From the NCBI GenBank assembly GCA_963721685.1, contig CAVRJJ010000005.1, positions 311,367 to 375,366 of the forward strand: DNA of 64,000 nt, read 5' to 3'. Position 1 is the first letter of the stretch; every line of letters begins with the position of its first letter. This DNA is from an uncultured bacterium (GTDB lineage: Bacteria > Patescibacteriota > Saccharimonadia > UBA4664 > SCTI01). Below the pieces are notes generated by a model. That model searched no databases and was not told the origin of the DNA. It worked only from the letters and a program-made list of their open reading frames with translations. Both the position numbers and the translations under genes were made by a program. Of the stretch, positions 7,983 to 35,860 are shown piece after piece.

Positions 7983-7995
7983 GATTGTCTCGTAT

Positions 7996-8031
7996 TAAAA
8001 AGCCGCTGCCGTTACCGGTCAGCGGCTTTTT
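7996..8031. terminator. Rho-independent terminator hairpin between the major pilin and minor pilin genes
   Basis: AAAAAGCCGCTG-(11 nt loop)-CAGCGGCTTTTT is a 7-bp GC stem flanked by an A-run and a T-run. It is symmetric and could act on either strand. Confidence 0.6.
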
Positions 8032-8050
8032 AGCTAGGTTAGACTATTAG

Positions 8051-8512: not shown

Positions 8513-8568
8513 CTCCTAATTTTTTTTCTTATTATGGTACTAAACAAAGCATAAGCTCTATTGACCTA

Positions 8569-8599
8569 ATTGTAAAATTTTTATGTTGTGCGTGTCAAG
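8569..8599 (-). promoter_or_regulatory. putative sigma70-type promoter for the major pilin gene
   Basis: On the minus strand there is a TTGACA -35 box, then an 18-19 nt spacer, then TACAAT. The spacer length is non-ideal. Confidence 0.3.
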
Positions 8600-8618
8600 G
8601 ATTTTTGCATTAGACAGC

Positions 8619-9839
8619 TTAAATGGCTTGATTCAATGACGCCAGCGGCCCGAACACTCCAATGACGATAAACCCGACAATACCCCCCAATGAGACGATG
8701 AGAATTGGCTCAATTACCGAGGTGATTCCGGCAACCACCGTGTCTACCTCACGTTCATAGAAGCTTGCCAATTTGAGTAAAATTTCATCAAGTTTTCCGG
8801 TTTCCTCACCAACCGCAACCATTTGGCCGACGATAGGAGGAAAGGCAGCGAGCGCGTTAAGCGGCTCGGCTATCGGTTTACCGGCCTTAACCTGCCTGGC
8901 AACTTCGTGCAAGCCATTGCGAAAAACCGTATTGTTTAAACCGTCGGCACTGGTATTAAGCGCTTCGAGCACCGAGAGCCCTGAAGCCATCAGCGAGCCA
9001 AAAGTTCGCGCAAACCGGGCGACATTGACCTTAATGATGATTGGCCCAAGTATGGGCAATCGAATAAGCAGTTTATCAATCATGGCTTTGCCGCGGGCGG
9101 TGCGCTTAAAACGAAACGCAACTATGCCCAGCACTACAAGCCCAGCGAGTATAAAAATCCCATAGTTTACCAGGCCGCTGCTAATAGCCAGCATGAGCTT
9201 GCTATACCATGGCAGTTCTGCCCCCATGCTTTCAAAAATTACCGACATCCGGGGCACTAAATAAGTCATAAGAAAAACAAACGAACCCAATGTAACCGTA
9301 AGTAATATCCCGGGATAAATCATGGCGCTGCGAACCTTGGCAACTACCGCGGCGTCTTTTTCCTGCTGGACGGCCAAGCGCTCAAGTACTCCGTCAAGCA
9401 TGCCTCCAGCTTCACCAGCTTTAATCATATTGATGTATACTGCGGAAAAAACATCCGTGTGTGCCGCCAGCGCGTCGCTTAGGGTTGAGCCGCCTTCAAC
9501 TTGTTTTGTAATATCAGAGATAACTGATTGAAAATGCTTATTAGCGGTTTGGCCGCTTAGCATAGTAAGTGATTGGGTTAACGGAACACCGGCGTTGATC
9601 ATGGTGGCAAACTGCCGCGAGAATATTACCTTCTCCTCAAGTTTTACGCGGCCGCCAAACTTAAATTTCCCTAAACTTAGGCCTTTACCGCCGGCCTTGG
9701 CAAATTCGATTTTAATGAGTATTGGCACCAACTCCCGATCGAGGAGGCTTGCCGCCGCCGCGGCTTGGTCGTTGGCAACTAAACTGCCTTTTTGAATGGT
9801 CCCACTATGATCGCGCGCGGTATAGGTAAAAGTTGCCAT
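8619..9839 (-). CDS. pilC: type IV pilus assembly platform protein PilC (GspF family)
   Basis: A polytopic membrane protein with duplicated GspF domains. The start is reassigned to the internal MATFTYTARDHSG, the typical PilC N-terminus, at 9839. The listed longer ORF 8619..9980 would overlap pilB. Confidence 0.85.
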   Translation of the reverse strand: MATFTYTARDHSGTIQKGSLVANDQAAAAASLLDRELVPILIKIEFAKAGGKGLSLGKFKFGGRVKLEEKVIFSRQFATMINAGVPLTQSLTMLSGQTANKHFQSVISDITKQVEGGSTLSDALAAHTDVFSAVYINMIKAGEAGGMLDGVLERLAVQQEKDAAVVAKVRSAMIYPGILLTVTLGSFVFLMTYLVPRMSVIFESMGAELPWYSKLMLAISSGLVNYGIFILAGLVVLGIVAFRFKRTARGKAMIDKLLIRLPILGPIIIKVNVARFARTFGSLMASGLSVLEALNTSADGLNNTVFRNGLHEVARQVKAGKPIAEPLNALAAFPPIVGQMVAVGEETGKLDEILLKLASFYEREVDTVVAGITSVIEPILIVSLGGIVGFIVIGVFGPLASLNQAI

Positions 9840-9840
9840 C

Positions 9841-11796
9841 CTACTCTCTGGTAACCCGTAAAATCTCTTCGATGGTGGTAAGGCCACGCAGAGATTTGAG
9901 AAAACCGTCTTGCTGCATGGTGAGCATGCCGGATTGGATGGCCTGCTTTTGAATGTCTTCGCTTGTAGCATGGCTGACAATCATTTGCTGAATTTGCGTA
10001 TTCACTTCCAAAACCTCATAAATACCAAGCCGTCCCAGGTAACCGTTGCCGCCGCACTGGTCGCAGCCGTCACTGGCCTTATAGAGAGTGAACTGTCCGT
10101 TTTTTAGCGCCTTAAGCTCGGGGCCGGAAACAAGCTCGGCCGCCGCCGGTGGCGGCTCTTCGGCTATGGGATCCAGCTCCGCAGCCTTTTGTTTCAATAA
10201 TTTGGCATCTTCGGAACTGCGTTCGATGATATTTGGGTCGGAAGCAATTTTATCCAGTATTGATTTGGATTGTCCGATTGGATGCAGGGGCCGCAGCTCT
10301 TTTTTTGCAGGGGGCTTGACTTCTTCCGTCTTGACAGCGATCGCTTTCTGGATATATTTCACAGCACTGACCGTTTCAAAATCCCGGTTTATATCAGCCA
10401 ACACCTGCCCTTCAGGAACGTAGGCGACACGGCATGACGAGCATAGACGGCGCACCAACCGCTGGCCAATGACCGTATTAACGGTTGAAGCAATCAGGAA
10501 GGGCTCAATTTGCATATCGAGCAAGCGCGGCAGGGTGGTGGCGGCATTGTTAGTGTGAAGGGTTGAAAGTACTACATGCCCGGTCAGTGCCGCCTGTACG
10601 GCTAAGTCGGCGGTTTCTCCGTCCCGTACCTCGCCTACCATAATGACATTTGGGTCCTGCCGCAAAAGCGCGCGTAAGCCGCCTGCAAAGGTCATTCCAG
10701 CTTTTGGGTTGACTTGGGTTTGATTGACTCCGGGCACCCGGTACTCCACCGGGTCTTCAACGGTAGAAATATTGATGCCTGGTGTGTTGAGCATGCTGAG
10801 TACGCTGTAGAGAGTAGTAGATTTTCCTGACCCGGTGGGGCCGGTTACTAAAACCATGCCGTGCGGTTTACGAATGCCGCGCTCAATCCGGCCCAGCGCC
10901 TCACCTTCAAATCCTAGTTCCTCGAGCGTTAAGGCACGTACCCCCTCGTCCAAAATACGCATGACGACTTTTTCCCCATCCATAATTGGTAAGGTAGAAA
11001 CCCGCAGGGCCACCGTTTTGGAACCAACGGCAAATTTGAAGCGCCCATCCTGCGGTATTCGGTGTTCATCAATTTTAAGATTAGCTAAAATTTTAATACG
11101 GGATACCACCGCGGCCATAATATTTTTTGGCAATGTCATGGTTTCCCTTAGGACCCCGTCAATTCGAAACCGGACTTGCACCAAGTTTTCGCGCGGTTCG
11201 AGGTGAATATCGGAGGCCCTGGCTTTAACCGCGTACTCCAAGACAATATTCACCGTCTTGGCGATAGGCGCGTCTTCCGCTAAGTCTTTGGCGCTAACTT
11301 CCTGCTGCTTTTCTACTTCATCAGCGCTGCTGTCTTTTATAGCTTTGGTGATTTCACTCGAAATATTGCCTTTGTATTGGTCGATGGCGCTAAGAATATC
11401 GCTGGCCGAGGCAACATAAATGGTAATATCCTGTCCAATTTGCTTGGCAATAAAATCAGCGGCCTGGAAATCTTCAGGGTCGGCCATTGCCAGCTGTAAG
11501 GTAGTGCCATCTTGCCCAAATAAGACAGCTTGGTACTTGCGGGCAATGCGTTCAGGGATTTTGGTGAGAATGTCGTGAGAAATCGCGACATCACGCAAGT
11601 CAACATAGGGGATGTCGACGCTTTTGGCGTAAAGCTTGAGCAAATTTTGCTCGGTAATAAGCTTGCGTTTGAGCACAGTCTGCAGCAAAGGCTCACCGGT
11701 TTGTTCGTGAGCCTCTTCGGCAGCTTGCAGTATCTCCGGCTTAACCTTCTTACTGGCAAGCAGGAGATTTTTTAACTCGGAATCAGATACACGCAT
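9841..11796 (-). CDS. pilB: type IV pilus assembly ATPase PilB (GspE family)
   Basis: An N-terminal T2SSE_N-like domain, Walker A GPTGSGKSTT, a CxxC..CxxC tetracysteine and a length of 651 aa. Confidence 0.9.
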   Translation of the reverse strand: MRVSDSELKNLLLASKKVKPEILQAAEEAHEQTGEPLLQTVLKRKLITEQNLLKLYAKSVDIPYVDLRDVAISHDILTKIPERIARKYQAVLFGQDGTTLQLAMADPEDFQAADFIAKQIGQDITIYVASASDILSAIDQYKGNISSEITKAIKDSSADEVEKQQEVSAKDLAEDAPIAKTVNIVLEYAVKARASDIHLEPRENLVQVRFRIDGVLRETMTLPKNIMAAVVSRIKILANLKIDEHRIPQDGRFKFAVGSKTVALRVSTLPIMDGEKVVMRILDEGVRALTLEELGFEGEALGRIERGIRKPHGMVLVTGPTGSGKSTTLYSVLSMLNTPGINISTVEDPVEYRVPGVNQTQVNPKAGMTFAGGLRALLRQDPNVIMVGEVRDGETADLAVQAALTGHVVLSTLHTNNAATTLPRLLDMQIEPFLIASTVNTVIGQRLVRRLCSSCRVAYVPEGQVLADINRDFETVSAVKYIQKAIAVKTEEVKPPAKKELRPLHPIGQSKSILDKIASDPNIIERSSEDAKLLKQKAAELDPIAEEPPPAAAELVSGPELKALKNGQFTLYKASDGCDQCGGNGYLGRLGIYEVLEVNTQIQQMIVSHATSEDIQKQAIQSGMLTMQQDGFLKSLRGLTTIEEILRVTRE

Positions 11797-15780: not shown

Positions 15781-16572
15781 ATGAACATCCTTTACATTGG
15801 CGATATTACCGGCAAGCTGGGACGGGAAACCGTTAAAGCTGAACTGGCTACCATTAAGCAGGAATACAAGATTGACTTTACCATTGCCCAAGGCGAAAAC
15901 GTTTCTCATGGCAAGGGTCTTCAAGCGAACCATGCCGAAGAATTAATGGCCGCCGGCGTTGATTTTTTTACCGGGGGCAACCATTCCGTTTCCCGCCCCG
16001 ACTTCCTCAAAACCGCTGTAAACGCGATCCGGCCGGCCAACCTTTCCGCCGATGCACCTGGAAGGGGTTGGGCACTTAGCGCAACACCGTTCGGTAAAGT
16101 TCTCATTATTAGCTTACAGGGTCAGATAGTGGGAATGAACGCGGGTCTGCAATTGGCCAACCCGCTGGAGGCAGTTAATCACATTCTGGATGAACATAAA
16201 AGTACTGCCCGCGTGGCCACCATTGTGAATTTCCATGGCGACTTTTCCAGTGAAAAAGTAGTAATAGGGCAGTATTTAGATGGGAAAGTCACGGCAGTTA
16301 TTGGCGACCATTGGCATGTTCCAACGGCCGACGCCCAAGTCTTGCCCGGTGGCACTGCCCATATTACCGATGTCGGCATGACGGGAGCCCTAGACTCGTC
16401 GCTGGGCGTGAAAACAGAGGTTATTATTCAGCGCTGGCTGCGGCCAGACGTCCGCACGGTGAATGAAATGGAAGATGGGGGACGCCGTCAATTTTGCGCG
16501 GTCGTTATGGAGGTTGGCGCTAACGGTTTAGCCACCTCCATCCAGCCGATGCGACGCGTCTTTTCAGCCTAG
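15781..16572 (+). CDS. ymdB: YmdB-like metallophosphoesterase (TIGR00282 family, 2',3'-cyclic-nucleotide phosphodiesterase-like)
   Basis: The start is reassigned to MNILYIGDITGKLGRE.. immediately after the rny stop. The motifs GDI.G..G and QGEN..HG are present. The rny-ymdB pairing is conserved in Firmicutes. Confidence 0.8.
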   Translation: MNILYIGDITGKLGRETVKAELATIKQEYKIDFTIAQGENVSHGKGLQANHAEELMAAGVDFFTGGNHSVSRPDFLKTAVNAIRPANLSADAPGRGWALSATPFGKVLIISLQGQIVGMNAGLQLANPLEAVNHILDEHKSTARVATIVNFHGDFSSEKVVIGQYLDGKVTAVIGDHWHVPTADAQVLPGGTAHITDVGMTGALDSSLGVKTEVIIQRWLRPDVRTVNEMEDGGRRQFCAVVMEVGANGLATSIQPMRRVFSA

Positions 16573-16695
16573 TTCTACTTGCGCAATTGGCAATTATCAC
16601 TAAAAAATGCCTGATTTATAGTGGTTTTTCAGCTTGGTGAAGGGGAAAACATTTGCTAGACTAATACTCAAGGATAAGTGAGGATTCAAGGTACC

Positions 16696-16968
16696 ATGAC
16701 CAAGCAAAAACTTATTGAAACTCTAGCTCGTGAAACCCAGCTCAGTAAGCGTGAGGTTGAAAACATGCTGGTAAAATTAACAGGCATTGTCGGAAACACG
16801 ATTAAGCGCGGCGAGAAAGTGTCAATAACCGGCTTTGGTACTTTTGACCTTGGTAAGCGCGCGGCCCGCCGTGGCGTTAACCCGCAGACCGGCGCGGAAA
16901 TTCATATTCCGGAAATGCCAATGCCGCGCTTCCGGGCAGGCAAGCGGCTCAAGGAAGTAGTGCGCTAA
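16696..16968 (+). CDS. hup: HU family DNA-binding protein
   Basis: MTKQKLIETLARETQLSKREVENML..GFGTF..R.ARRGVNPQTG is the HU/IHF signature. The protein is about 90 aa. Confidence 0.85.
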   Translation: MTKQKLIETLARETQLSKREVENMLVKLTGIVGNTIKRGEKVSITGFGTFDLGKRAARRGVNPQTGAEIHIPEMPMPRFRAGKRLKEVVR

Positions 16969-17005
16969 GCCGGAATTTAAGCTACAATTACCCAGGTATC
17001 GCCGC

Positions 17006-17082
17006 CGGGGTGTGGCGCAGTTGGCTAGCGCGCCTGCTTTGGGAGCAGGAGGTCGAAGGTTCGAGTCCTTTCACCCCGACCA
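17006..17082 (+). tRNA. tRNA-Pro (anticodon UGG)
   Basis: A manual cloverleaf was folded: acceptor CGGGGTG/CACCCCG, D arm GCGC/GCGC, anticodon stem CCTGC/GCAGG with loop TTTGGGA, T arm GAAGG-TTCGAGT-CCTTT, and an encoded CCA. Confidence 0.8.
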
Positions 17083-17103
17083 TTTGATTTCAGTACGCAT
17101 CAC

Positions 17104-17178
17104 GCGGGTGTCGTATAGTGGCTATTATGTCAGCCTTCCAAGCTGAAAACGCGGGTTCGATTCCCGCCACCCGCTCCA
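17104..17178 (+). tRNA. tRNA-Gly (anticodon UCC)
   Basis: Acceptor GCGGGTG/CACCCGC, anticodon stem TCAGC/GCTGA with loop CTTCCAA, T arm GCGGG-TTCGATT-CCCGC, and an encoded CCA. Confidence 0.8.
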
Positions 17179-17190
17179 GCAATCATCCAA

Positions 17191-17739
17191 TTAAAAGTCG
17201 TAGACAAAGAGAGTTTGGCCCAGCTGCCATTTCTCGCCAATCTTAATCACGCGGATTGGTTTACGGTTAGGTAGGGGAAAGTCACAGGAGACCAGTCGGG
17301 AACCTTTAGACAACTCCGCGTCGAATTTTGGTTCAAGCTCTGCCATTTGGCCATGGCTTAGGTAGGTGAAGACCCAGCGGGCTGAATTAAGAGATGCCTT
17401 ATTAATGTCACCGCGCTTGACGCTAGCCCGCGGCATGCGCTGCAAGCTCCAGCGCGCAATTAGCACAACAACCGGATTGATTTCCACCCCAAAAGCCTTA
17501 ACCTTTGCATTTGCCGCCGCGGCTGCTTTTAGGACCCGTCCGTCGCCGCAGCCGAGATCCATAAATGTTCCTGTACCTTTCAGTTCAAGGGCATCAATAA
17601 CCGCCGGAACTGCCCGGGCGGGGAGGGGAATGTACCCGATGCGCCTGCGGGATGCCTGGTAGGCGGCAAAGGTTAGCAGTATAACCAGGGCAACCGTTAA
17701 AACAAGTAATACAATGATGGCCGCCAGGGTTGATAGCAT
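17191..17739 (-). CDS. membrane-anchored class I SAM-dependent methyltransferase
   Basis: An N-terminal TM helix, then the DLGCGDGRV SAM-binding motif I. The protein is 182 aa and sits between the tRNA genes. Confidence 0.65.
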   Translation of the reverse strand: MLSTLAAIIVLLVLTVALVILLTFAAYQASRRRIGYIPLPARAVPAVIDALELKGTGTFMDLGCGDGRVLKAAAAANAKVKAFGVEINPVVVLIARWSLQRMPRASVKRGDINKASLNSARWVFTYLSHGQMAELEPKFDAELSKGSRLVSCDFPLPNRKPIRVIKIGEKWQLGQTLFVYDF

Positions 17740-17780
17740 GGGATTAGTCTAGCATGCTAAACTTACGGGAGTAATATCAT

Positions 17781-17857
17781 GCCCCTGTAGCTCAGCTGGA
17801 TAGAGCAGAGGACTTCTAAGCCTAAGGTCGTAGGTTCGAATCCTACCAGGGGCACCA
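17781..17857 (+). tRNA. tRNA-Arg (anticodon UCU), with non-canonical anticodon stem
   Basis: Acceptor GCCCCTG/CAGGGGC, D arm GCTC/GAGC, T arm GTAGG-TTCGAAT-CCTAC, an encoded CCA and an anticodon loop CTTCTAA. The anticodon stem GAGGA/GCCTA has only three Watson-Crick pairs. Confidence 0.6.
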
Positions 17858-17980
17858 ATAATACTGTAAAATAAGCTGGTTAGGTCTCTCGGATTATCCC
17901 GGCCTGATTTTAATGAATCACGACGAGCATTAAAGTTAGCTCGGGGGCTGTAACTTCGGTTATGGCCTCCACCATTTTAT

Positions 17981-18058
17981 GGCGAGATTAGCTCAGTTGG
18001 TTAGAGCGCCGGTTTGTGGTACCGGAGGTCGTGGGTTCAAGCCCCATATCTCGCCCCA
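17981..18058 (+). tRNA. tRNA-His (anticodon GUG) with genomically encoded G-1
   Basis: G-1 precedes the acceptor GCGAGAT/ATCTCGC. The anticodon stem is CCGGT/ACCGG with loop TTGTGGT. The T arm is GTGGG-TTCAAGC-CCCAT. Discriminator C73 and CCA are encoded. Confidence 0.75.
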
Positions 18059-18139
18059 AAGTACTTATGCTTACTTATGATCTTATCAAAGAATAAAACA
18101 AAATATGGTACGCTTTAATCAATTACGAAGGGATTATCG

Positions 18140-19339
18140 ATGTCTGATGGCGGTGATGGACGCGAAGATGAAGGTACTGGCGGAGAAGGGGCTAAACACT
18201 TTGAGGGTGCCGATGATTTAGGGCGCCAGCTCGGAGGAGATGTAGGCGATGAAGATGAAGGAGTCGGACACTCAGAACATGTTGGTGATGGTGCAGTCGA
18301 AGACGCAAGCAATGAAGGTCAAGCAGAGGTCAATGAAATAACAAAGTCAAGTGAGAGTGATCGCCTAGATGCAGAGTTTTTGAAAGTCGTATTAGAGCTT
18401 GAACTCAAACACATAAGCGAAGTAAAAGATCTCGCTCGTGATGTGGCAGAAAATAGAGTAGGGGGATCATTTCATACTTGGCAAGATATTTATCAAAGCA
18501 CAAACTGGTTTGCACTTTTAGATAAACGTTCCGGTGAGACTTCGGATATTATCCGTGCGAGGACAGAAAGTAGATACCCTTCAGGTAGGTCTTATGCGAG
18601 TGAAAGGGGTTATGAACCGGATGACCAGTTCCATCCGTTTAACGAAAAAAGATCATATATATCGCCAGATGAAATTAAAGAGCTTGAAGTGGAACATTCC
18701 GAAGTAAGTGTGGATTCTCCCGAGTTTGTTGAGCTGGCTTTTCAAGCAAAGGCCAATAAGACTAGGAAGGAATTTGAGGAACGTATCGAAAGAGCAGAGG
18801 CTCGGGCCGTTCGGCGTGAAGAATGGGCTAAGGCTATACATGACAATCCCGGCGCAGTAGAGTTAATTGGAAGCCCTGGTTATGAGGGCAGTATTGAGTA
18901 TACTAATCCTGCAGAGCTCTGTGTGCGCATGGAAGCCGAGGCCCAAGTAGTTAGAAGGCGTGCGACTATTTTGCGGGATCGTGCACAAGCGATGTCTGTT
19001 CCCGGGGTAAAGTACGATCAAGCTGTTTTTGAAAATGCACTGTATAGTGCCATGAATGCTGAGCATGACCCTGAGGGCGAAGATAACTATGGTGGGTATA
19101 ATGGGCGGCATGCAGAGTATCGGTGGGTAAGGCAGGTTGAAGCAGATTACACCCAGGGAAGACGTCCTGCTCGAGAAACCACTAAGGCACGTATTGATAC
19201 GCTCCTATCCGACGAGGAAGCAAAGATTGGCGATGTAAAAGCATGCTACACCGGACACATCGTATATGAAGCCGAACAGTATGAAAAAGCAGCCGAAGAC
19301 ATTGAGCGCAGGCTTGCTGAGATCAAAACGCCTAGTTAG
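18140..19339 (+). CDS. hypothetical acidic protein (first gene of tRNA-His-adjacent island)
   Basis: A 399-aa ORF with a highly acidic Gly/Asp/Glu-rich N-terminus and no domain that I recognise. It has its own AT-rich upstream region. Confidence 0.5.
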   Translation: MSDGGDGREDEGTGGEGAKHFEGADDLGRQLGGDVGDEDEGVGHSEHVGDGAVEDASNEGQAEVNEITKSSESDRLDAEFLKVVLELELKHISEVKDLARDVAENRVGGSFHTWQDIYQSTNWFALLDKRSGETSDIIRARTESRYPSGRSYASERGYEPDDQFHPFNEKRSYISPDEIKELEVEHSEVSVDSPEFVELAFQAKANKTRKEFEERIERAEARAVRREEWAKAIHDNPGAVELIGSPGYEGSIEYTNPAELCVRMEAEAQVVRRRATILRDRAQAMSVPGVKYDQAVFENALYSAMNAEHDPEGEDNYGGYNGRHAEYRWVRQVEADYTQGRRPARETTKARIDTLLSDEEAKIGDVKACYTGHIVYEAEQYEKAAEDIERRLAEIKTPS

Positions 19340-19389
19340 ATTCAGGCCAAATCATCCGAAGACGATGCTCAAAAATCTACGAAGCCATC

Positions 19390-19476
19390 ACCGACCTAAA
19401 CCGAACGTCATTCACCATTTCACATATAATTTTATAATGTTCAGTTCGCAACTTGGCCGCCAACTCGCCCCAATTG
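19390..19476 (+). repeat. island direct repeat, copy 1
   Basis: It aligns with copies 2 and 3 on the core ..AAACCG.A..TCATT.ACCATTTC.CA.AT...TTT.TA.TG.TC.GTTCG.AAC.TG..CGCC(AACTCGCCCCAAT). Confidence 0.6.
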
Positions 19477-19587
19477 CTTTCGAACTTATTTTACCTTGGC
19501 AAAGGCATTATTCGCTCTTCAAACCCGTAACGCTGAATGGGTTTCGAACCCTTAGTCGAGCCATGATTTTGCAATAATTGCGGGTTG

Positions 19588-19618
19588 CCCCGGCGCGACT
19601 GGGGAAGTCGCGCCGGGG
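19588..19618 (-). terminator. GC-rich perfect hairpin downstream of the minus-strand GC-rich gene
   Basis: CCCCGGCGCGACT-GGGGA-AGTCGCGCCGGGG is a 13-bp perfect stem 18 nt beyond the stop of 19637..20116. It has no U-tract. Confidence 0.4.
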
Positions 19619-19636
19619 CGAAGCGCGTAGTGCGCC

Positions 19637-20116
19637 CTAGTGCCGGTAGAGCAGGACGGGAGTGTTGCCCGGCAGGGCATCGAGGTATGCCCTGACTGCC
19701 CGGTTGCGGCTATGGATCGGCCAGTCGCCTTCGACGTGGTCGATCCCTGGAACCTCGATCTTGGCGAGATCCCTGGCGTATGCCCAGGTCATCTCGCCGC
19801 CGGTTGCGTCCGTTCTCGTCATCTCGTAGCCACCCTCGCGGAAGACGTAGATCTCGACGTCGGCCGGAAGCGGGTGCGTGTTGATGCGCGGTTCGTCCGG
19901 AATGTCGTGGCGGTGGCTTGCCATCTCCTTGACCCAAGCCAGGTCGAAGATCTGACCGAGGGTCTCGTAGTTCTGGCCCATCTCGAGGACGCTGTGCGGA
20001 TAGACCTCTCTGCTCGTGAGAGCATCAGTGCCCGCAATCAGCAGTCTGAGGTATTCTCCCATGTCTGTGCTCCTTTCAAGAGCGGTTTGTGTGCAAGGGA
20101 TGCTATATAATAACAT
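19637..20116 (-). CDS. hypothetical protein, strongly GC-rich (cassette 1 of island)
   Basis: A 159-aa ORF. Third codon positions on this strand are overwhelmingly G/C by manual tally, much more so than in the overlapping plus-strand ORF, so the minus strand is taken as coding. Confidence 0.5.
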   Translation of the reverse strand: MLLYSIPCTQTALERSTDMGEYLRLLIAGTDALTSREVYPHSVLEMGQNYETLGQIFDLAWVKEMASHRHDIPDEPRINTHPLPADVEIYVFREGGYEMTRTDATGGEMTWAYARDLAKIEVPGIDHVEGDWPIHSRNRAVRAYLDALPGNTPVLLYRH

Positions 20117-20222
20117 AAAATGCTTGAGTTATAAATGCTTTTATGGTGCAGTATAAATAATTCGTGCGGGCATCGCATTAACCACCATATATAGTATTCA
20201 CAATCCGGTAGGACTCGCCATT

Positions 20223-20311
20223 ACCGACCGAAACCGTATATCATTTACCATTTCACAAATCGCTTTGTAGTGCTCGGTTCGCAACCTGAACGCCAACTCG
20301 CCCCAATATTG
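20223..20311 (+). repeat. island direct repeat, copy 2
   Basis: The same core as copies 1 and 3, about 830 bp downstream of copy 1 in the same orientation. Confidence 0.6.
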
Positions 20312-20471
20312 TTGCAATTATATGAAAAGTATGGTATTATAACGCCCATCTCACTTGAGAGTTCTTTCAATTATGTAATGGAGAGCCATTTGCGCATTGC
20401 TGTGCGTAGCTGGCTCTCCGTTTCTGCCGCGGCGAGCTCTACTACTACTTAGGCAGAACAAGGAGTTCACC

Positions 20472-20975
20472 GTGTACACTCACCTGTACGTTAGCTACAC
20501 CGACGCTGAGCGTCTGTTCAAGAAGTTCGGACGGAAGCCGCTTGGACCGGGCGAATCCGGATGCGTCACTCGCTCGACGCTCGATGAGCATTTCAGCGAG
20601 TTCGGCATGACCTACATCGACCGGCTGGACGCATCTCTCGAGCCCGACCGGACCGACGACACGTTCGTCCTCAAGTTCAGCAAGTACCTCCCGCATGTTC
20701 CGCGGGAGCTCGTCGAGATGGGCATCAAGGTTCTCAGGGTCGAGATGGTGCGCTACAACAGCGCACCGACCAGTGCTCGTGCCGGGTACTACGAGAGCCT
20801 GACCGGCTTCACCGCAACGGTGGAGAACGTCGTTTCGACACAGAACGGCAAAAGGGTTGGCGCGTATGCCCAGAACATCACGCTCACAGGCCCTTCCCTC
20901 ATGGCGGCGCAGCAGTTCAACTCGCAGCTGAGCGAGGGGGGCAGCAACCACTTGCTGGTGAACGCCTTCGAGTAA
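20472..20975 (+). CDS. hypothetical protein, strongly GC-rich (cassette 2 of island)
   Basis: The start is reassigned to GTG at 20472, which sits 6 nt after an AAGGAG RBS. The protein is about 167 aa, with third positions mostly G/C. The overlapping minus-strand ORF has Arg/Ala-rich antisense-type composition. Confidence 0.5.
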   Translation: MYTHLYVSYTDAERLFKKFGRKPLGPGESGCVTRSTLDEHFSEFGMTYIDRLDASLEPDRTDDTFVLKFSKYLPHVPRELVEMGIKVLRVEMVRYNSAPTSARAGYYESLTGFTATVENVVSTQNGKRVGAYAQNITLTGPSLMAAQQFNSQLSEGGSNHLLVNAFE

Positions 20976-21035
20976 GCAGAGACGGGAGCACAAGGCGGGC
21001 CTACGGGCCCGCCGCTTCCATTTATGCACTTATCG

Positions 21036-21104
21036 TTTTAAACCGAATATCATTAACCATTTCGCAAATAGCTTTATAGTGCTCGGTTCGTAACATGGAC
21101 GCCC
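21036..21104 (+). repeat. island direct repeat, copy 3
   Basis: The same core. Its 3' end provides the ATG of the truncated uridine-kinase-like ORF. Confidence 0.6.
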
Positions 21105-21481
21105 TTCGAAGCGGTAAAAGCGTAACGATTGATGTTTGGAGCCATCGGTCGAACTCCGATTATTTTAACCATGGCAAAATGAAACCGCGCACCCTTTTTC
21201 CAAGACCTATCATTCTTATTGAAGGCTACTTGGCACTTTGGAATCCAAAACTGAACGAGCAGTATGACCGCAAGTACTATATTGATTTGAATGAGGCGAC
21301 GCGCACGGCTCGAAGAAAAAATAAGATTATATATAGCGACGACATTGTAATCCCGATGCACAATAAATATATTGAACCAACCAAAAAACACGCTGATATT
21401 GTTTTTTACGTGGTCAAGATGAGCGCCGGAGAACTTCAGCGTAAAATAAGAGAAGATATTCGCTCGGCGTCGCTAGTGTGA
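21095..21481 (+). pseudogene. uridine kinase/phosphoribulokinase-family fragment lacking the N-terminal P-loop half
   Basis: The encoded ..ALRSGKSVTIDVWSHRS..IILIEGYLAL..IDLNEATRTARR..HNKYIEPTKKHADIV.. matches the C-terminal two-thirds of uridine kinase. No GxxGxGKS P-loop is present upstream, where repeat copy 3 lies. Local sequence is AT-rich. Confidence 0.5.
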
Positions 21482-21568
21482 ATGCAGTGTCAGGCAATTC
21501 TAAGCTAAGAGGGCTCTACAGATCCATCGGCATAAAGTATTTATGCTTGTTTACTCCAGGAAAAGTCC

Positions 21569-21904
21569 ATGCTACGCTTACCTCAACAAATAGAGATTAT
21601 ACCTATGATCGCAAAAAAGATTATTCACGGAGTATTAAGTGGAATAGTCGCATCCATACTCTTGGGAATGTTGGCCGCGAAATTGGGGGAAATGGCAGCA
21701 AATGGAGACCCCAGCGATGTCAGTGGCTTATACATTATTCTGATGCCGATAATGTTTGGGCCGATTGCCATTGCTATTGGTCTAGTGGCTTCATTTCTCC
21801 TATTAAGAAAATCTATAACCAAAAGAAGAGTACTCCTAATATATTTGGTTACCTTCCTTTTGATCTGCGTGGTTAGGTATGCATTTGCCGGAACAATCGC
21901 ATAA
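21569..21904 (+). CDS. small hypothetical membrane protein
   Basis: A 111-aa ORF with three predicted hydrophobic helices in an AT-rich segment. Alternative overlapping ORFs exist. Confidence 0.3.
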   Translation: MLRLPQQIEIIPMIAKKIIHGVLSGIVASILLGMLAAKLGEMAANGDPSDVSGLYIILMPIMFGPIAIAIGLVASFLLLRKSITKRRVLLIYLVTFLLICVVRYAFAGTIA

Positions 21905-21972
21905 TTGCGCAAAGTTATCATTGTTGCCGTAGAATTCGGCAGCAACCTATTGCTATAATTTAAGCTGACTTA

Positions 21973-22482
21973 TTGGAGAAAAACATGCAAAAGTTCAAGC
22001 CGTTCATTTGGTTCAAAGATAACGCTGAAGAGGCGATGAATTACTATGTTTCCACTTTTAGAAACTCTAAAATCACGCACATTGAACGTTATAGCGGGGA
22101 TATGGGTATTCCTGGCGAGAAAGAACTGGCCGGGAAAGTACTGACAGGTGTTTTTGAACTGGACGGGCAGGAATTCCAGTGCCTCGATGGGGGACCGCAG
22201 TTTGAAATGACCGGAGCCATTTCATTTTTATGGGAGCTTGAGACCCAAGAAGAAATTGATGAAGTTTGGGAAAAGCTGGTTGACGGCGGTAAAGCCATAC
22301 AGTGTGGCTGGGTGACCGATAAGTTTGGCGTAACCTGGCAAATTACACCTGCAATTATGGGCCGGATGATGAGCGACCCATCGGCCACCCCCGAACAAAA
22401 GAAAGCCTTAATGCAGGCCATGATGCCCATGGTTAAGTTGGAGATAGCGCCGCTAGAAGCCGCCTTTAACGCGGCTAAATAG
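21973..22482 (+). CDS. VOC-family / PhnB-like (3-demethylubiquinone-9 3-methyltransferase-like fold) protein
   Basis: MQKFKPFIWFKDNAEEAMNYYVSTF..ERYS.. is the typical PhnB-like N-terminus. The protein is 169 aa. Confidence 0.65.
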   Translation: MEKNMQKFKPFIWFKDNAEEAMNYYVSTFRNSKITHIERYSGDMGIPGEKELAGKVLTGVFELDGQEFQCLDGGPQFEMTGAISFLWELETQEEIDEVWEKLVDGGKAIQCGWVTDKFGVTWQITPAIMGRMMSDPSATPEQKKALMQAMMPMVKLEIAPLEAAFNAAK

Positions 22483-22510
22483 TGAAAATAAAATTCCTGG
22501 ATGGTTTATT

Positions 22511-22765
22511 TTAACGCGGCCCGGAATGTAGATCCTGAATTCTTCTTTGGGCGGCGAATGCATCACTCCGCGCGATGTCTTGGCTTGGGTCCTCAAGAAT
22601 CTGCAAAGCAGCTTCCAGGGCGCCAGGATGGCCGGCCGCGTAGGCTTCGGTATGTATATCTACTTTCTCCTTTGCCGTTAATGTTGGATCACTGGCAAGT
22701 TCGTCTACGCGGTCGTAGTCACCGGCGTAAGTAGCATTAACGGCTTCTGTCAATAAATCATTCAT
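22511..22765 (-). CDS. hypothetical protein
   Basis: An 84-aa ORF with plausible composition and no recognisable domain. Confidence 0.3.
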   Translation of the reverse strand: MNDLLTEAVNATYAGDYDRVDELASDPTLTAKEKVDIHTEAYAAGHPGALEAALQILEDPSQDIARSDAFAAQRRIQDLHSGPR

Positions 22766-22958
22766 TTCCCGAGTAGTTCTAGCAGCGGTTGGGTGCTCGG
22801 TTCAGGTTGTCGGCTTCTCATGAGATCCGCCGCAAGGTTTCTGGCTCTGGCAAATGGCTTGTCCGAATTGCCGCCTGTCTCACTCCGCTCATCTTCAATA
22901 CCCATAGTGTACTATCCTTATGGTTACGTTGACCTAATCCTAACATATTGTGCCGTCT

Positions 22959-23231
22959 CTACACGTAGTCGGTATCGATATAGCAGTAGCGCCATTCTTT
23001 GGTGTTAGCGGCAGCTGTTTTGAATGACTCAATAATAGGATGTCCGGTTTCATTAAAGTGCTTGCGGGCGTGCTGGCGGGGGGAGCGGTCGCAGCAGGCT
23101 ACCTTTCCGCAAGAGAGGCACTGGCGCAACTCTACGAGGTCGACTCCTTCGGCCACGCACTCTTGGCAGGTATCACTGCTTGGGGCCACTTCTTTAATTT
23201 GGTCTTGATGGGTGCAGATTGAATTAGGCAT
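22959..23231 (-). CDS. UBP-type zinc-finger domain protein
   Basis: CTHQ..CQECV..L.LRQCLSCGKVACCD..RQHARKHFNETGH matches the zf-UBP Cys/His ligand pattern. The start is reassigned to MPNSIC... Confidence 0.6.
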   Translation of the reverse strand: MPNSICTHQDQIKEVAPSSDTCQECVAEGVDLVELRQCLSCGKVACCDRSPRQHARKHFNETGHPIIESFKTAAANTKEWRYCYIDTDYV

Positions 23232-23323
23232 TGTTTCTCCAGAATTATATAGGAAGTATATCAGGGTATATCTTGGAGGAATGCACAAGAATGGTGAACA
23301 CTAAAGATGATATTTATAAATAG

Positions 23324-24940
23324 ATGAAGCAATTGTGGTATAAAAACGCCGTTATTTACGCGGTGGATGTTAGTACATTCCAAGACAGCAACGATGATGG
23401 GATAGGTGATTTTCCAGGGCTCACCAAACGCTTAGATCATTTGGCGTATATGGGTGTTGACTGCATCTGGGTGTTGCCCTTCTTTCCCAGCCCCCGACGG
23501 GATAATGGCTACGACGTCACCAACTATGTTGATATTGATCCCCGCTTTGGAACCTTTGATGACTTCAGGAAGTTTATTAAGCGTGCCGACGAGTTGGAGA
23601 TACGAGTGCTTATTGATTTGGTGGTACACCATACGTCAGACCGTCATCCGTGGTTTGAGGCGGCGCGGTCTGACCGGACTTCCAAATACCGCGACTACTA
23701 TATCTGGAGTGATGACCTCCCTTCTATAAAAACCGAAAAAAGCTTTTTCCCAGAAGTGGAGTCAGGCGTGTGGCGCTACGACCCGATTTCCGAATCCTAC
23801 TACCGGCATGGGTTTTACCATTTTCAACCGGATCTGAACTTTGCGAACCCCCATGTTCGCCAAGAGGTATTTAACATTGTGGATTTCTGGCTTTCCTATG
23901 GTATCAGCGGTTTTCGCATTGACGCCGCTAACTGGATCATGGGCCTTAAGGGTCTGCCTGGAACAGAGGTAAAGGACCCTGGTGCCTTTTGGAAAAAAAT
24001 CCACGATTTTATTCGGAAGCGGCGGGAGGACGCGGCCCTTTTGGTGGAAGCGGACATGGAGAAGGAGGAGATACCCAGCTTTGTCTTAGGCGGCAAAGGA
24101 GTGCAAATGCTAAAAAACTTTTGGGGAAATCAAACAATGCTTTACGCGCTGGCATCTGAAAAAGCTCAACCGTTGCTCGATACGCTTAACGAGCTTCCGG
24201 TTATGCCCACAGAATCCCAATATGTAAATTTTTTACGTAATCTCGATGAAGCGAACATCGAGCGTCTCACCACCGAGGAACAAGATGTGGTTTACCGCAA
24301 ATTCGGAGCCAAGAAAACCATGCAGGTGTATGGCCGGGGGATCCGGCGGCGGCTTGCCCCTATGTTAAAGGGCAATATAAAACAGTTAAAAATGGCGCAC
24401 AGTTTATTGTTTTCGATGCCTGGAGCGCCACTAATACCATACGGTGACGAGATAGGGATGGGGGATAATTTAAAACTTCAGGAGCGTGACGCGGTGCGGG
24501 TTCCGATGCAATGGGCAAACGAGCCTTATGGCGGTTTCTCCACTACCGATGTGTGCGATATTGTAGACCGACGCGTACGGGAAAAGCAATTCCATTACCG
24601 GCGGGTGAATGTGGCTGCGCAGAAAAACGATTCCGACTCTTTGCTTAATTGCATAAAAAAACTGATTGAATTGCGGAAGAAATATCCGATAGTTGGCGCC
24701 AGTAACTTTGAGGCCTTAGTAACCGACCGCCCCGATGTAGTAGCCTTAAAAGTGGAAAATGGGAACGCCAGGTTTATAAGTTTTCATAACCTATCAAGCA
24801 AAGCTTGTATTGCTAAGCTCAAGATTCCCGCGCACCTTAAAGGGCTAAAAGAAGTTATGTCGGATAGTGAATACGAAGCTCCCAGCGATGGATTGCGTCT
24901 TGAAGCGTATGGATGGAGGTGGTTCACCGATGGCCGATGA
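23324..24940 (+). CDS. GH13 family alpha-glucan enzyme, trehalose synthase / maltose alpha-D-glucosyltransferase-like
   Basis: WYKNAVIY.., FFPSPRRDNGYDV, DLVVHHTSDRHPWF and GFRIDAA are GH13 conserved regions with TreS-like character. The length is 538 aa. Confidence 0.7.
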   Translation: MKQLWYKNAVIYAVDVSTFQDSNDDGIGDFPGLTKRLDHLAYMGVDCIWVLPFFPSPRRDNGYDVTNYVDIDPRFGTFDDFRKFIKRADELEIRVLIDLVVHHTSDRHPWFEAARSDRTSKYRDYYIWSDDLPSIKTEKSFFPEVESGVWRYDPISESYYRHGFYHFQPDLNFANPHVRQEVFNIVDFWLSYGISGFRIDAANWIMGLKGLPGTEVKDPGAFWKKIHDFIRKRREDAALLVEADMEKEEIPSFVLGGKGVQMLKNFWGNQTMLYALASEKAQPLLDTLNELPVMPTESQYVNFLRNLDEANIERLTTEEQDVVYRKFGAKKTMQVYGRGIRRRLAPMLKGNIKQLKMAHSLLFSMPGAPLIPYGDEIGMGDNLKLQERDAVRVPMQWANEPYGGFSTTDVCDIVDRRVREKQFHYRRVNVAAQKNDSDSLLNCIKKLIELRKKYPIVGASNFEALVTDRPDVVALKVENGNARFISFHNLSSKACIAKLKIPAHLKGLKEVMSDSEYEAPSDGLRLEAYGWRWFTDGR

Positions 24941-30777: not shown

Positions 30778-31890
30778 CTATTCCACCACAATATAATCAT
30801 ATGCGTAGGGGGTACCCGCCAAAGGGGGTAGATTGCAGGAGATAGTAAAGTTCTGCGGTGTTCGAATGGCTGAAATTTCAATTTTGGCACTGTTGAAGCC
30901 AACCGGCGACAGGATAACCTTTGGAACGCTGCTAAAAGCCCGGCTAAAGGTGATAGTTGCCCATTGTCCATTTCCAGAGGGCCCGCAATTGGGTCCGCTG
31001 CCGGTAATAATTGAAATGGTTCCGGCAGTATCGTTGCCGCTGACAGTAGCGTTTCCGCCGCTTCCAATCCGGGTTGTAGCCGAAATGGAGGGGGCTGACC
31101 CGCCGCTGACAATATGACCGTTTATCGTTAACGATTGGCTTACCGTTATGGTTTGCACCGATATGGTGCCGACGGCGAAAGTGCCGCTTACGGATAAGCT
31201 TCCCCCAATCGTCGCGCTTCCCCTGACATTAATGTTCCCGGCGAAACTGCCGCTGCCGGTAACGTTTAACGGCCCGCCCACGTTGAGTTGGTTTCTGACA
31301 TCAACGGTACCCTGCAGGCTGGTGGTACCGTTAACGCTCAGGTTGGATCCGATGTTAAGGCTGTCGGCGGAAGCAGCACCGGTAATCCTGATTCCGGACG
31401 CGGCACTAATAAGTCCGTTGGCGGTTAAGCCATTTTCAAAAACCACCGGGTTTTTAAATACCGTGTCAGCTGAAATAGTTAGTGTTTGCTTGGGCTGCCC
31501 TAATCCAATTGCTGAAGCAAGGCTATTTATGGTTTCGTTGCTAAGGTTTTGAAAACTTATGCCAGCTTTTTCCAAAGCTTTTCCGGTTGGATCTTTCGGC
31601 TTTAAGAATAAATACACGATACCAGCGATTAACAAAATAAGAATGATGCTTCCGGGTATTAGGACCTTTGGACTGATCAGCCGCTTAGTCTTAATATGCT
31701 TGGGGGCTTCGTTTTCAACGGTATGGGGTTGATAGAGGTAAGCCTCCTTGTCATCTTGCAGTACCTTACCCTCAGACCCGGTTGGTTGCTGCGCTTTATC
31801 AGATTCACCGGCAGGCTTAGGAGCAGGGGTCGCCGGGCCCGGCTTCTTGCTGGTAGGGTCGTCTTTTTTGTCTGGGGCAGGAGTATCCAT
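30778..31890 (-). CDS. membrane-anchored beta-helix-repeat surface protein
   Basis: A Pro/Lys-rich N-terminus and one TM helix, then degenerate ~18-aa repeats (NLSVNGTTSLQGTVDVRN, QLNVGGPLNVTGSGSFAGNINVRGSATIGGSLSVSGT..). Confidence 0.45.
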   Translation of the reverse strand: MDTPAPDKKDDPTSKKPGPATPAPKPAGESDKAQQPTGSEGKVLQDDKEAYLYQPHTVENEAPKHIKTKRLISPKVLIPGSIILILLIAGIVYLFLKPKDPTGKALEKAGISFQNLSNETINSLASAIGLGQPKQTLTISADTVFKNPVVFENGLTANGLISAASGIRITGAASADSLNIGSNLSVNGTTSLQGTVDVRNQLNVGGPLNVTGSGSFAGNINVRGSATIGGSLSVSGTFAVGTISVQTITVSQSLTINGHIVSGGSAPSISATTRIGSGGNATVSGNDTAGTISIITGSGPNCGPSGNGQWATITFSRAFSSVPKVILSPVGFNSAKIEISAIRTPQNFTISCNLPPLAGTPYAYDYIVVE

Positions 31891-31933
31891 AATATACCTA
31901 TAATAATAACGCTTATGCTTTAGGGCTACAAGG

Positions 31934-32956
31934 TTGGCAGCACAAAAGCGTAAGAGGTATAATGAAAAGGTGAGTATGAAGTCATCACAACATTTTGTCC
32001 CGCACCACCATAGCGGGCGATTAATTCATCATCGCCACACCTCCTATGCCGGGTTGGTATTCGTAATTATGCTAAGCAGTATCATATTGATGGCTATTTC
32101 CTTTAATGCCCAAGCTTTTGAGCCCTCGGAGCTGCCTCCTCCGGTTGAAGAGGACCTTGATGTGCACGCGACGGTGCCCGGACCTGCTCCTAAAACCGCG
32201 CCAACTATCCAGACTCCGGCGAACGGCCAGGCTTTTACAAGCGTGCCCGTGTCGGTCCTTGGCAGTTGCCAAAAAGAAACGCTGGTTAAGATTTTTAAGA
32301 ATGACATTTTCGCCGGAGCGGCTTTCTGTGAAGGCAACGGGTCGTATAAAATGTCGATTGATTTGCTTGTTGGCTCCAACGCTTTGACCGCCCAAGCCTT
32401 TAACGCTCTCGATAAAGGAGGTCCGAGTTCTAATCCGGTTACGGTTAACTATAATTTGCCGGGACTGACGGCCGCCCAAGCCCCCGGCGCGTTTGAACCA
32501 GTAAAAACACCGGCTAACCAGCTACTTATTAATACGGTAAATTACCATAAGGGTTTGCGGGTAGGGGATGTGCTGGGGTGGCCGATTGAGCTGGTTGGGG
32601 GTAAGCCACCTTACGCCGTTAGTATTGGCTGGGGCGATGGCAAAACCGACCTTATTAGCCGGGGTCTGCCCGGCCGGTTCGATATAAAACATGTTTACGA
32701 CAAGGCGGGCCCAGGTTACCAAGGCAGCCAAACTATTGTTGTCAAAGCAACTGACTCTGAGGGCAGCACAGCCTATATTCAGCTTGTTACTATAGTGAAT
32801 AACGGCAATAAACAGGTTGCGGCTGCCAGCAGCCTGTTTTCGGGAAAGCTAGGCTTAGCGTGGCCGTTGGTATTGCTTGCCGTGTTGGTAGTGGTAAGTT
32901 TTTTCCTAGGGGAACGCCGTGAAAAACACATACTCCAGCAAAAGGGGCTCATATGA
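31934..32956 (+). CDS. membrane-anchored secreted protein with PKD-like domain
   Basis: An N-terminal TM/signal, ..SIGWGDGKTD.. (a WxDG PKD-like motif) and a C-terminal TM helix. The start could be the internal MKSSQHF. Confidence 0.45.
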   Translation: MAAQKRKRYNEKVSMKSSQHFVPHHHSGRLIHHRHTSYAGLVFVIMLSSIILMAISFNAQAFEPSELPPPVEEDLDVHATVPGPAPKTAPTIQTPANGQAFTSVPVSVLGSCQKETLVKIFKNDIFAGAAFCEGNGSYKMSIDLLVGSNALTAQAFNALDKGGPSSNPVTVNYNLPGLTAAQAPGAFEPVKTPANQLLINTVNYHKGLRVGDVLGWPIELVGGKPPYAVSIGWGDGKTDLISRGLPGRFDIKHVYDKAGPGYQGSQTIVVKATDSEGSTAYIQLVTIVNNGNKQVAAASSLFSGKLGLAWPLVLLAVLVVVSFFLGERREKHILQQKGLI

Positions 32957-35831: not shown

Positions 35832-35860
35832 CGCTTAAATCTCTTCGGACCACCTAACTC

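Follow-up and report, generated by a model that had tools for sequence, protein, structure and literature searches.

The window analyzed here, a 64-kb piece of a Saccharibacteria (TM7) chromosome, carries an array of single-gene cassettes that begins at the 3′ end of a tRNA-His gene and is divided by a direct repeat, R, whose full-length copies contain the last 9 nt of that tRNA gene (the core). R divides 18059–21110 into three single-gene cassettes, orf399, GC1, and GC2, and the same layout recurs downstream of tRNA-His in other soil Saccharibacteria, with unrelated cassettes between the repeats. We hold the description of the array as a series of tRNA-His-anchored, repeat-bounded units with high confidence. 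The best reading of its origin, which on balance we think probable, is serial site-specific capture of cassettes at the tRNA-His 3′ end by a recombinase supplied in trans. The features of the array are listed below, with open reading frames (ORFs) characterized by their GC content at third codon positions (GC3).

17982..18058, plus strand: tRNA-His(GTG), the array anchor (ARAGORN; Rfam tRNA, 66.6 bits)
18059..18075, plus strand: tRNA-His trailer (AAGTACTTATGCTTA...), homologous to the tRNA-His trailers of R-less relatives
18140..19339, plus strand: orf399, the gene of cassette 1; 399 aa with an acidic N terminus, GC3 0.36 (z −2.7)
19384..19478, plus strand: R1, full length, core at 19464–19472 (repeat search); its minus strand reads WGELAAKLRTEHYKIICEMVNDVRFRSVMAS and a stop
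19580..19626, strand unassigned: GC-rich 21-nt inverted repeat directly 3′ of GC1 (repeat search)
19637..20062, minus strand: GC1 (P0001), the gene of cassette 2; 141 aa in public data, with the ORF extending to 20116; GC3 0.76
20217..20312, plus strand: R2, full length, core at 20297–20305 (repeat search); its minus strand reads WGELAFRLRTEHYKAICEMVNDIRFRSVMAS...
20312–20340, plus strand: promoter-like site of cassette 3, TTGCAA-17-TATTAT
approximately 20377–20471, plus strand: GC-rich 5′ leader of GC2, with a hairpin GGAGAGCC..GGCTCTCC and then GTTTCTGCCGCGGCGAGC
20472..20975, plus strand: GC2 (P0002), the gene of cassette 3; 167 aa, GTG start, GC3 0.79
21026 to approximately 21110, plus strand: R3, 3′-truncated (repeat search)
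21095..21481, plus strand: uridine-kinase/PRK C-terminal fragment (Pfam, profile positions 80–191 of 196)

The repeat search detected a direct repeat of approximately 91–95 nt in three copies starting at 19384, 20217, and 21026, with spacings of 833 and 809 nt. R1 and R2 are 78%–81% identical; R3 is 65% identical to R1, lacks the core, and loses homology at approximately 21100, where it abuts the truncated kinase ORF. The copies bracket the compositionally deviant genes exactly, in the order tRNA-His / orf399 / R1 / GC1(−) / R2 / GC2(+) / R3 / kinase fragment. The core occupies 18050–18058 of the tRNA gene, reads CTCGCCCCA, and includes the encoded CCA. On both strands of the 64 kb, CTCGCCCCA occurs three times against 0.49 expected, and the CTCGCCCCA(A) sites are the tRNA-His end and the cores of R1 and R2, with none elsewhere in the window.

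A previous annotation made from the letters alone (the sequence-only reading) had proposed that a horizontally acquired island of mosaic composition follows tRNA-His directly and extends to 23.3 kb. The elements that it listed (four tRNAs, the 399-aa orphan, the GC-rich ORFs, the kinase fragment, and the PhnB-like and zf-UBP genes) are all present where it placed them, its background of approximately 50% GC agrees with the 49.2% measured for the whole window, and the sharp mosaic that it described is apparent in both sliding 500-bp GC and GC3, which show strong outliers and are not uniform. Nearly all windows more than 2 standard deviations (SD) from the mean fall in three blocks, at 19.4–21.1 kb (high), 21.5–22.1 kb (low), and 42.9–46.6 kb (AT-rich), and one further high-GC patch lies at 41.0–41.6 kb. 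Against a GC3 background of 0.520 (SD 0.058, from approximately 55 window ORFs), the outliers are orf399, GC1 (z +4.2), and GC2, the last in its plus-strand frame; the gene frame in each GC-rich patch was chosen by high GC3 and a protein-like translation and agrees with the public calls P0001 and P0002. The presence of DNA of odd composition after tRNA-His is therefore confirmed as real. The proposal of foreign DNA at the tRNA-His 3′ end holds from 18059 to approximately 21110, home of all three deviant genes, and is not supported for 21.1–23.3 kb, where composition is mostly native and the PhnB gene, at least, belongs to the lineage. Mobilization had been left unexplained; what had been overlooked were the three direct repeats, which define the structure and bear on how it may have been mobilized.

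The tRNA-derived part of the repeat is unusually short in the window (9–10 nt) and extends into the tRNA-His trailer and terminator at other loci. The core in most R copies outside the window is followed by one of two related sequences, AAGAACTTATGCTTAAATAACGGCT-hairpin-TTTTGTT (type 1) or GGAATTATT..AATAATGGCT-hairpin (type 2). Type 1 is the trailer and terminator that follows tRNA-His in two R-less relatives, L004 and L043, and also in R-bearing L012; type 2 is that of R-less L005. The window's own trailer is also homologous to the sequence 3′ of the core in many R copies elsewhere. The repeated unit therefore consists of an R body of approximately 85 nt, the last 9 nt of tRNA-His, and the tRNA-His trailer with its terminator; it looks like a tRNA-His 3′ region with the R body in place of the tRNA body. 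L004, the closest relative having flanking sequence, represents the empty-site state, in which tRNA-His, trailer, and terminator are followed by ordinary genes. Gene order there gives a mixed answer to the expectation that GH13 genes would directly follow tRNA-His in a relative without the island: a PhzF-like gene and an ABC transporter come first, and GH13 is approximately 3.1 kb away.

An R hidden Markov model (HMM) built from the three window copies (cutoff E ≤ 1e-5) was used to scan 80 Saccharibacteria loci, and metagenome copies were collected by searching JGI metagenomes with a pattern and then applying the HMM. In total, 36 copies were found in 19 sequences: the window, the genome loci L012 (four copies), L036 (two), and L007 (one), and 15 metagenome contigs, with densities of up to five copies per 3.3 kb (L093). 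The remaining 77 genome loci and the remainder of the window yielded no copy, and R is carried by 3/23 of the genome loci that have tRNA-His plus at least 2 kb of downstream sequence. Seven of the sequences extend to tRNA-His (the window, L012, L036, L007, L088, L099, and L109); R lies downstream of it on the same strand in 7/7, and the first cassette starts at the tRNA-His 3′ end. Conserved blocks across the 36 copies are a left block (...ACCGAYCGAAAYCTAATATCRTTCACCAT), GGTTCGAAAC, and AGCTCGCCCCA, with a variable stretch of approximately 25 nt between the left block and GGTTCGAAAC. Invariant stretches of R are approximately 10 nt long, and the units align between loci over approximately 150–190 nt. 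Truncated copies include R3 of the window, L090_1181, and L093_421. R identity is 0.71 within arrays versus 0.65 between arrays (p = 0.003), which suggests that the repeat is supplied or homogenized in the host lineage and that the genes come from elsewhere.

Intervals between R copies range from 0.53 to 3.8 kb, and many of 0.55–1.1 kb hold a single ORF in either orientation. Interval GC is 0.41–0.60 in arrays of hosts with 0.47–0.57 GC, and orientations are mixed over 27 cassettes. All-against-all BLASTP with the longest ORF of each cassette (the 27 bounded on both sides) gave no matches; a separate DNA comparison identified one recurring family, a DUF2087+GNAT gene directly 5′ of R in both L012 and L112. 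The functions assigned by Pfam (ParE toxin, APH-type kinase, alpha/beta hydrolase, DUF2087+GNAT, MOSC, and Schlafen/AlbA_2 ATPase) are typical accessory functions, and further cassette genes, judged by eye from their translations, are Fic-, Nudix-, and MazG-like; several cassette genes are orphans.

One array, L083, contains an ORF that resembles an IS3-family OrfB transposase by eye (1025–1870, minus strand), approximately 1 kb upstream of an R copy, so other mobile DNA probably also lands in R arrays. A separate, highly conserved element of approximately 165–210 nt occurs at L090 3077–3286 (plus strand), L007 13184–12976 and 14373–14150 (minus strand), and L005 9087–9273 (plus strand). Its promoter (TTGAC-17-TATTAT), intrinsic terminator, and long-range closing stem (GGAAGAC/GTCTTCC) make it a candidate for an unannotated small RNA. 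In two loci it follows an R copy directly, and in the third it is located downstream of tRNA-His. It has no Rfam match and does not occur in the window.

The cassette genes of the window are themselves obscure: orf399, GC1, and GC2 gave nothing significant in Pfam, PHROGs, NCBIfam, or PADLOC, and the PADLOC result was the basis for rejecting a defense system. AlphaFold models of GC1 and GC2 were unusable, with predicted local distance difference test scores of 34 and 36. GC1 is an orphan that matches itself alone among 5.8 billion protein clusters. It has a promoter-like site at 20135–20107 (minus strand), and we read the inverted repeat directly 3′ of it as its terminator, although the terminator scan did not flag that site. 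GC2 is followed by a terminator at 20994–21013, and its sole homolog is P0003, which is 56% identical and encoded at L081 in a 57%-GC genome. There, P0003 fits the composition of its surroundings (GC3 0.67 versus approximately 0.64) and lies 255 nt downstream of tRNA-Glu, without R. Aligned as DNA, the GC2 locus and its L081 counterpart match from the −10 box to a point shortly after the stop codon, including the 5′ leader, which is strongly conserved, and the match covers nearly the whole R2–R3 interval; this extent indicates that neighboring R copies enclose an entire transcription unit of foreign origin. By eye, the GC2 leader and its L081 counterpart (approximately 8190–8284) are much better conserved than the coding sequence, which suggests a possible cis-regulatory RNA; Rfam gave no match for the leader (20377–20471). 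At L081, P0003 is part of a run of six small hypothetical ORFs (7954–10907), another tRNA-adjacent islet without R repeats.

R showed no sign of secondary structure. Folding of both DNA strands gave z values of −1.05 to +0.62 versus shuffled sequences, the consensus fold had five weak pairs and no covariation, and no inverted repeats or terminal inverted repeats were found within R. A scan of 16500–24000 against Rfam passed only the four tRNAs and overlapped no R copy even at E ≤ 1. These fold, covariation, and Rfam results rule out a structured RNA or an attC-like hairpin. A miniature inverted-repeat transposable element (MITE) or other non-autonomous transposon was rejected on the missing terminal inverted repeats and on the position of the copies, which are found only downstream of tRNA-His and in one orientation. 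For a repeat of the diversity-generating retroelement type, the differences between R1 and R2 are of the wrong kind, comprising all kinds of substitution on inspection, and no reverse transcriptase was present among the ORFs scanned. R is not a degenerate tRNA-His copy either, as its model matches the tRNA only at the 9-nt core and a GGTTCGA-like block. A phage or plasmid origin of the array, the three R copies included, was rejected after INPHARED, PLSDB, and IMG/VR gave no DNA or protein match; IMG/VR held no true R copies, and two pattern matches there were due to chance.

The R body evolves like a minus-strand coding sequence without a complete gene. The minus strand reads W-G-E-L-x-x-(K/T)-F-R-T-...-(I/L)-x-x-M-V-N-D-I-R-F-R-S-V, with W-G-E encoded by the reverse complement of the core. 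In all 29 full copies this frame is uninterrupted, compared with 0–3 copies for four other frames and 17 for one. Column entropy is 1.01 at third codon positions versus 0.67 and 0.72 at the others (permutation p = 0.02), and the ratio of nonsynonymous to synonymous polymorphism (pN/pS) is 0.44–0.49, against 0.91–1.11 in four other frames and 0.48–0.55 in the antisense frame that shares its third positions. A stop codon lies 0–3 codons upstream of W in most copies; an in-frame start before W with no intervening stop is present in 10/33 (in 9 of these within 10 codons), and the downstream stop comes 0–11 codons past ...SV(L). A profile search of 5.8 billion clusters with the R peptide and an HMMER search of 1.84 billion representatives returned only micro-ORFs of 44–73 aa and one spurious zinc-finger repeat protein, and neither returned a longer protein containing the peptide. 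PDB profiles gave only macrodomain (helix-strand) matches at E = 0.2, which are not significant, and Pfam gave nothing. That R might be the C terminus of a known protein found no support in these searches. The coding-like pattern may reflect a translated micro-ORF with unusual initiation, the relic of a gene split at an attachment site, or a constraint at the DNA level that happens to have period three.

In the best reading, 18059 to approximately 21110 is an array of three single-gene cassettes gained by horizontal transfer, and each of them forms a full transcription unit, made up of a promoter-like site, a gene, and a terminator or hairpin. Cassettes would enter singly, as circles carrying R body, core, and trailer, by site-specific recombination of their R-core site with the core at the tRNA-His 3′ end or in an R already present, and each insertion would add one R-core copy. 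A gene outside the array would supply the recombinase in trans, and a later deletion at the distal edge would have truncated R3 and the kinase gene. The observed arrangement, tRNA body-core-trailer followed by n units of cassette-R body-core-trailer, is the product expected of repeated recombination, which favors this mechanism by the same logic that is applied to tRNA-targeting islands and integron arrays. In addition, the invariant stretches of R appear too short for RecA-type homologous recombination, which points to a site-specific enzyme; because no recombinase is encoded in the array or detected in R-bearing fragments, such an enzyme would act in trans. Xer-type recombination is one candidate, given that modules mobilized through Xer likewise carry no recombinase of their own.

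Several observations weigh against capture. In the window, trailer-like sequence is present after tRNA-His and absent after R1 and R2, a pattern that a plain crossover at precisely the core would not predict. Nor does the model have a role for the coding-like signature of R. As the sequence-only reading had reported, no integrase is visible in the window: neither motif regular expressions (window and all loci) nor Pfam analysis of 37 window ORFs identified a recombinase, although these checks are partial, because the expressions are crude and could miss a divergent or novel enzyme and because 64 kb is a small part of the genome. No recombinase or integrase was found in the 19 R-bearing sequences, and the data showed neither a circular cassette nor an empty-site polymorphism nor an identical cassette in two places, leaving mobility as something we infer. 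Finally, the JGI search pattern demanded the core, making the R-core linkage in metagenome contigs partly a matter of construction; the linkage of R to tRNA-His and the truncated R copies are independent of that pattern.

A fuller form of the capture reading, which we put forward tentatively as one possibility, is that the array is a dedicated Saccharibacteria gene-capture platform at tRNA-His that would be integron-like in its working but built differently. Its site would be linear and non-hairpin, of approximately 95 nt plus the terminal 9 nt of the tRNA and the trailer; its single-gene cassettes would be self-promoted; its recombinase, of whatever type, would act in trans; and the site would encode, or be constrained as if encoding, a peptide of approximately 30 residues involved in the reaction.

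The main rival to serial capture is accretion and decay, which we consider rather unlikely. Under that reading, larger elements carrying integrases would have inserted at tRNA-His one after another, in the way of tycheposons, cis-mobilizable elements, or ssrA islands, and the array would be what remains of them; R would be the attachment arm on the element side, perhaps the 3′ part of a gene spanning attP as in SSV-type elements, and the cassettes would be cargo genes that outlasted deletion and not mobile units. The coding-type pattern of the R body starts precisely where the core does, which is what a gene interrupted at attP would show, and the truncated R copies (R3, L090_1181, and L093_421) show that decay happens; tRNA-anchored islands with scattered att repeats and older elements pushed inward are known in streamlined genomes (10.1101/2020.12.28.424599; PMC3146451). 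However, no integrase or fragment of one was found in any of the 19 R-bearing sequences, and the units are small and regular, many of them 0.55–1.1 kb with one intact gene, which is unlike random decay. No longer R-peptide protein exists among the 5.8 billion clusters or 1.84 billion representatives, stops lie 0–3 codons upstream of the core in most copies so that there is no adjacent N-terminal partner, and IMG/VR has no true R matches. Accretion and decay accounts for the gene-fragment look of R, and it does not account for the intact single-gene units or the absent integrase remnants.

It is improbable that R is an independent small repeat (MITE-like, a promoter/terminator module, or a micro-protein gene) that spread in a pre-existing island whose genes came by another route, for example natural transformation and homologous recombination at conserved flanks. 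R1 does have a good sigma-70-like site, TTCACC-16-TATAAT, with weaker versions in R2 and R3, but few parts of R vary more between genomes than the −10 region. The minus-strand frame, open in 29/29 copies with a pN/pS of 0.44–0.49, would suit a micro-protein gene, but the start codon is missing in most copies. Greater similarity within than between arrays is compatible with local spread, whereas a mobile repeat is hard to reconcile with the lack of inverted termini or a significant fold and with the restriction of R to one orientation downstream of tRNA-His, ending in the tRNA 3′ end and trailer; the invariant stretches also appear too short for the RecA-type recombination that this route would use.

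It is very improbable that the mosaic is a chimera of assembly or binning or is native DNA with an odd composition: the contig was assembled from a metagenome, where repeats can cause mis-joins, but two contigs assembled independently from run ERR12037361 (Logan) carry exactly orf399 (1396 nt, encoding an identical protein) and exactly GC1 (1208 nt), from which gene positions they would span tRNA-His..orf399..R1 and R1..GC1..R2..start of GC2 and so argue against a mis-join, the same architecture occurs in 18 other sequences from unrelated samples, and native drift does not account for GC3 z values of +4.2 and −2.7 in neighboring genes.

On the distal side, the kinase fragment lacks approximately 76 N-terminal residues, including the P-loop part, and probably marks the array edge; one deletion could have removed both the R3 core and the 5′ part (approximately 76 codons) of the kinase gene. 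The genes beyond it, outside the array, are as follows.

21569–21904: small membrane ORF (ORF list)
21973–22482: PhnB-like gene, 3-dmu-9_3-mt (Pfam, E 5e-39)
22511–22765, minus strand: 84-aa ORF (ORF list)
22959–23288, minus strand: zf-UBP gene (Pfam, E 1e-11)

The kinase (Udk) fragment, PhnB, and zf-UBP have GC3 values of 0.47, 0.54, and 0.55; these three and the 84-aa ORF are within approximately 1 SD of the background, and the small membrane ORF is low, at 0.40. L004 has a PhnB copy, 64% identical, between HU and tRNA-Pro, i.e., on the other side of the tRNA cluster. The 21.1–23.3-kb segment is of mostly native composition, its foreignness is not demonstrable, and the neighborhood is rearranged among relatives. 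Two GH13 genes and a PAS gene follow from 23324.

On the 5′ side, the gene order is RNase Y, YmdB, HU, tRNA-Pro, tRNA-Gly, a SAM-methyltransferase gene (minus strand), tRNA-Arg, and tRNA-His; RNase Y, YmdB, and HU are housekeeping genes. The top protein matches to YmdB all come from Saccharibacteria/Saccharimonadales metagenome-assembled genomes, the closest 65%–67% identical. The other tRNAs of the cluster are:

17006–17082, plus strand: tRNA-Pro (ARAGORN)
17104–17178, plus strand: tRNA-Gly (ARAGORN)
17781–17857, plus strand: tRNA-Arg (ARAGORN)

The S-adenosylmethionine (SAM)-dependent methyltransferase gene (17191–17739, minus strand) sits between tRNA-Gly and tRNA-Arg, which are only 3 nt apart in L004. 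It has native composition (GC3 z +0.7), and its best NCBIfam match, an archaeal protein-lysine N-methyltransferase, is well under the cutoff. Elsewhere in the window, a second foreign-looking segment at 43518–46193 consists of ORFs of 646 aa (plus strand) and 244 aa (minus strand), with GC3 of 0.30 and 0.27 (z −3.8 and −4.4), 500-bp GC down to 0.31, and no meaningful match in Pfam or PADLOC. The GC-rich patch at 41000–41600 (0.59–0.60 in 500-bp windows) is local to a 1286-aa ORF (39460–43320) without a Pfam match. Seven consecutive ORFs of 218–390 aa occupy 30778–39354; six of the seven were scanned (340–390 aa and 324 aa), none with a significant Pfam match and one with a sub-threshold Glucodextran_B match, and the run may be a block of lineage-specific surface or unknown proteins.

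Gene gain in the tiny, host-dependent genomes of Saccharibacteria and the candidate phyla radiation is poorly understood, and a recurrent array at one tRNA gene would give it a concrete, searchable mechanism. With R as a probe, the phylum's pool of mobile accessory genes could be collected from metagenomes, and the array would mark a natural insertion site for engineering these bacteria. That R looks translated and is never a complete gene is a puzzle in itself.

The literature searched contained no description of such arrays in Saccharibacteria or Patescibacteria. Known islands anchored at tRNA-type genes that grow by accretion or serial integration include the tycheposons of Prochlorococcus (10.1101/2020.12.28.424599) and the ssrA islands of Dehalococcoides and the accretion of cis-mobilizable elements (CIMEs) and integrative and conjugative elements (ICEs) in streptococci (PMC3146451). 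Like these systems, the R array sits in a small, streamlined genome and is anchored at a tRNA-type gene by that gene's 3′ end; newer insertions adjoin older ones, units are bounded by a direct repeat of the gene 3′ end, and the cargo is accessory and of mixed composition. An intact tRNA flanks the array on one side and a direct repeat of that tRNA's 3′ segment on the other, which is the arrangement that defines tRNA-targeting elements; neither the window array nor any of the 18 other R-bearing sequences yielded the site-specific integrase that also defines them. The known islands carry tyrosine or serine integrases, typically measure kilobases to tens of kilobases (tycheposons approximately 10–20 kb), and repeat approximately 20–48 nt of the tRNA, whereas R-array units are 0.5–1.3 kb, occasionally up to 3.8 kb, come with no integrase found, and repeat 9–10 nt of the tRNA plus a non-tRNA body of approximately 85 nt that is conserved across genomes.

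A further near analogy is with integrons and with clusters of attC sites lacking integron integrases (CALINs). Both are arrays of mostly single-gene units, each with its own recombination-site-like repeat, the cassettes are diverse and accessory (toxin, acetyltransferase, phosphotransferase), and the recombinase is missing beside some arrays; greater similarity of R within a host than between hosts also recalls the species-specific attC sites of chromosomal integrons. attC acts as a folded single strand, and intI, attI, and Pc are needed for a complete integron only. R, by comparison, has no hairpin (fold z −1.05 to +0.62), there is no intI or attI, and the array begins at a tRNA gene. Integron cassettes are mostly promoterless and in one orientation, whereas R cassettes occur in both orientations with their own promoter-like sites (GC1 on the minus strand, GC2 on the plus strand). 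The pdif modules of Acinetobacter plasmids and integrative mobile elements exploiting Xer (IMEXs) use 28-bp XerC/XerD sites at dif or on plasmids. They share with R arrays small modules between short conserved sites, tandem arrangement, and a host recombinase encoded elsewhere, the last of which is proposed here. By eye, the trailer (TTATGCTTAAAT) loosely resembles what we take to be the XerD arm (TTATGTTAAAT); the same stretch is part of the terminator stem, and the resemblance is a lead, not a test.

SSV-type archaeal elements, in which the integrase gene is split by attP within a tRNA-matching core, offer a parallel to the coding-like pattern of R: an ORF begins or continues exactly at the tRNA-matching core, and integration leaves a gene fragment beside it. 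The R fragment differs in being approximately 30 codons long, in lacking a partner fragment or intact gene in the databases searched, and in having a bacterial host. Placed among these systems, the R array would be a tRNA-anchored, repeat-bounded cassette array with an unusual, coding-like repeat in the putative role of attachment site.

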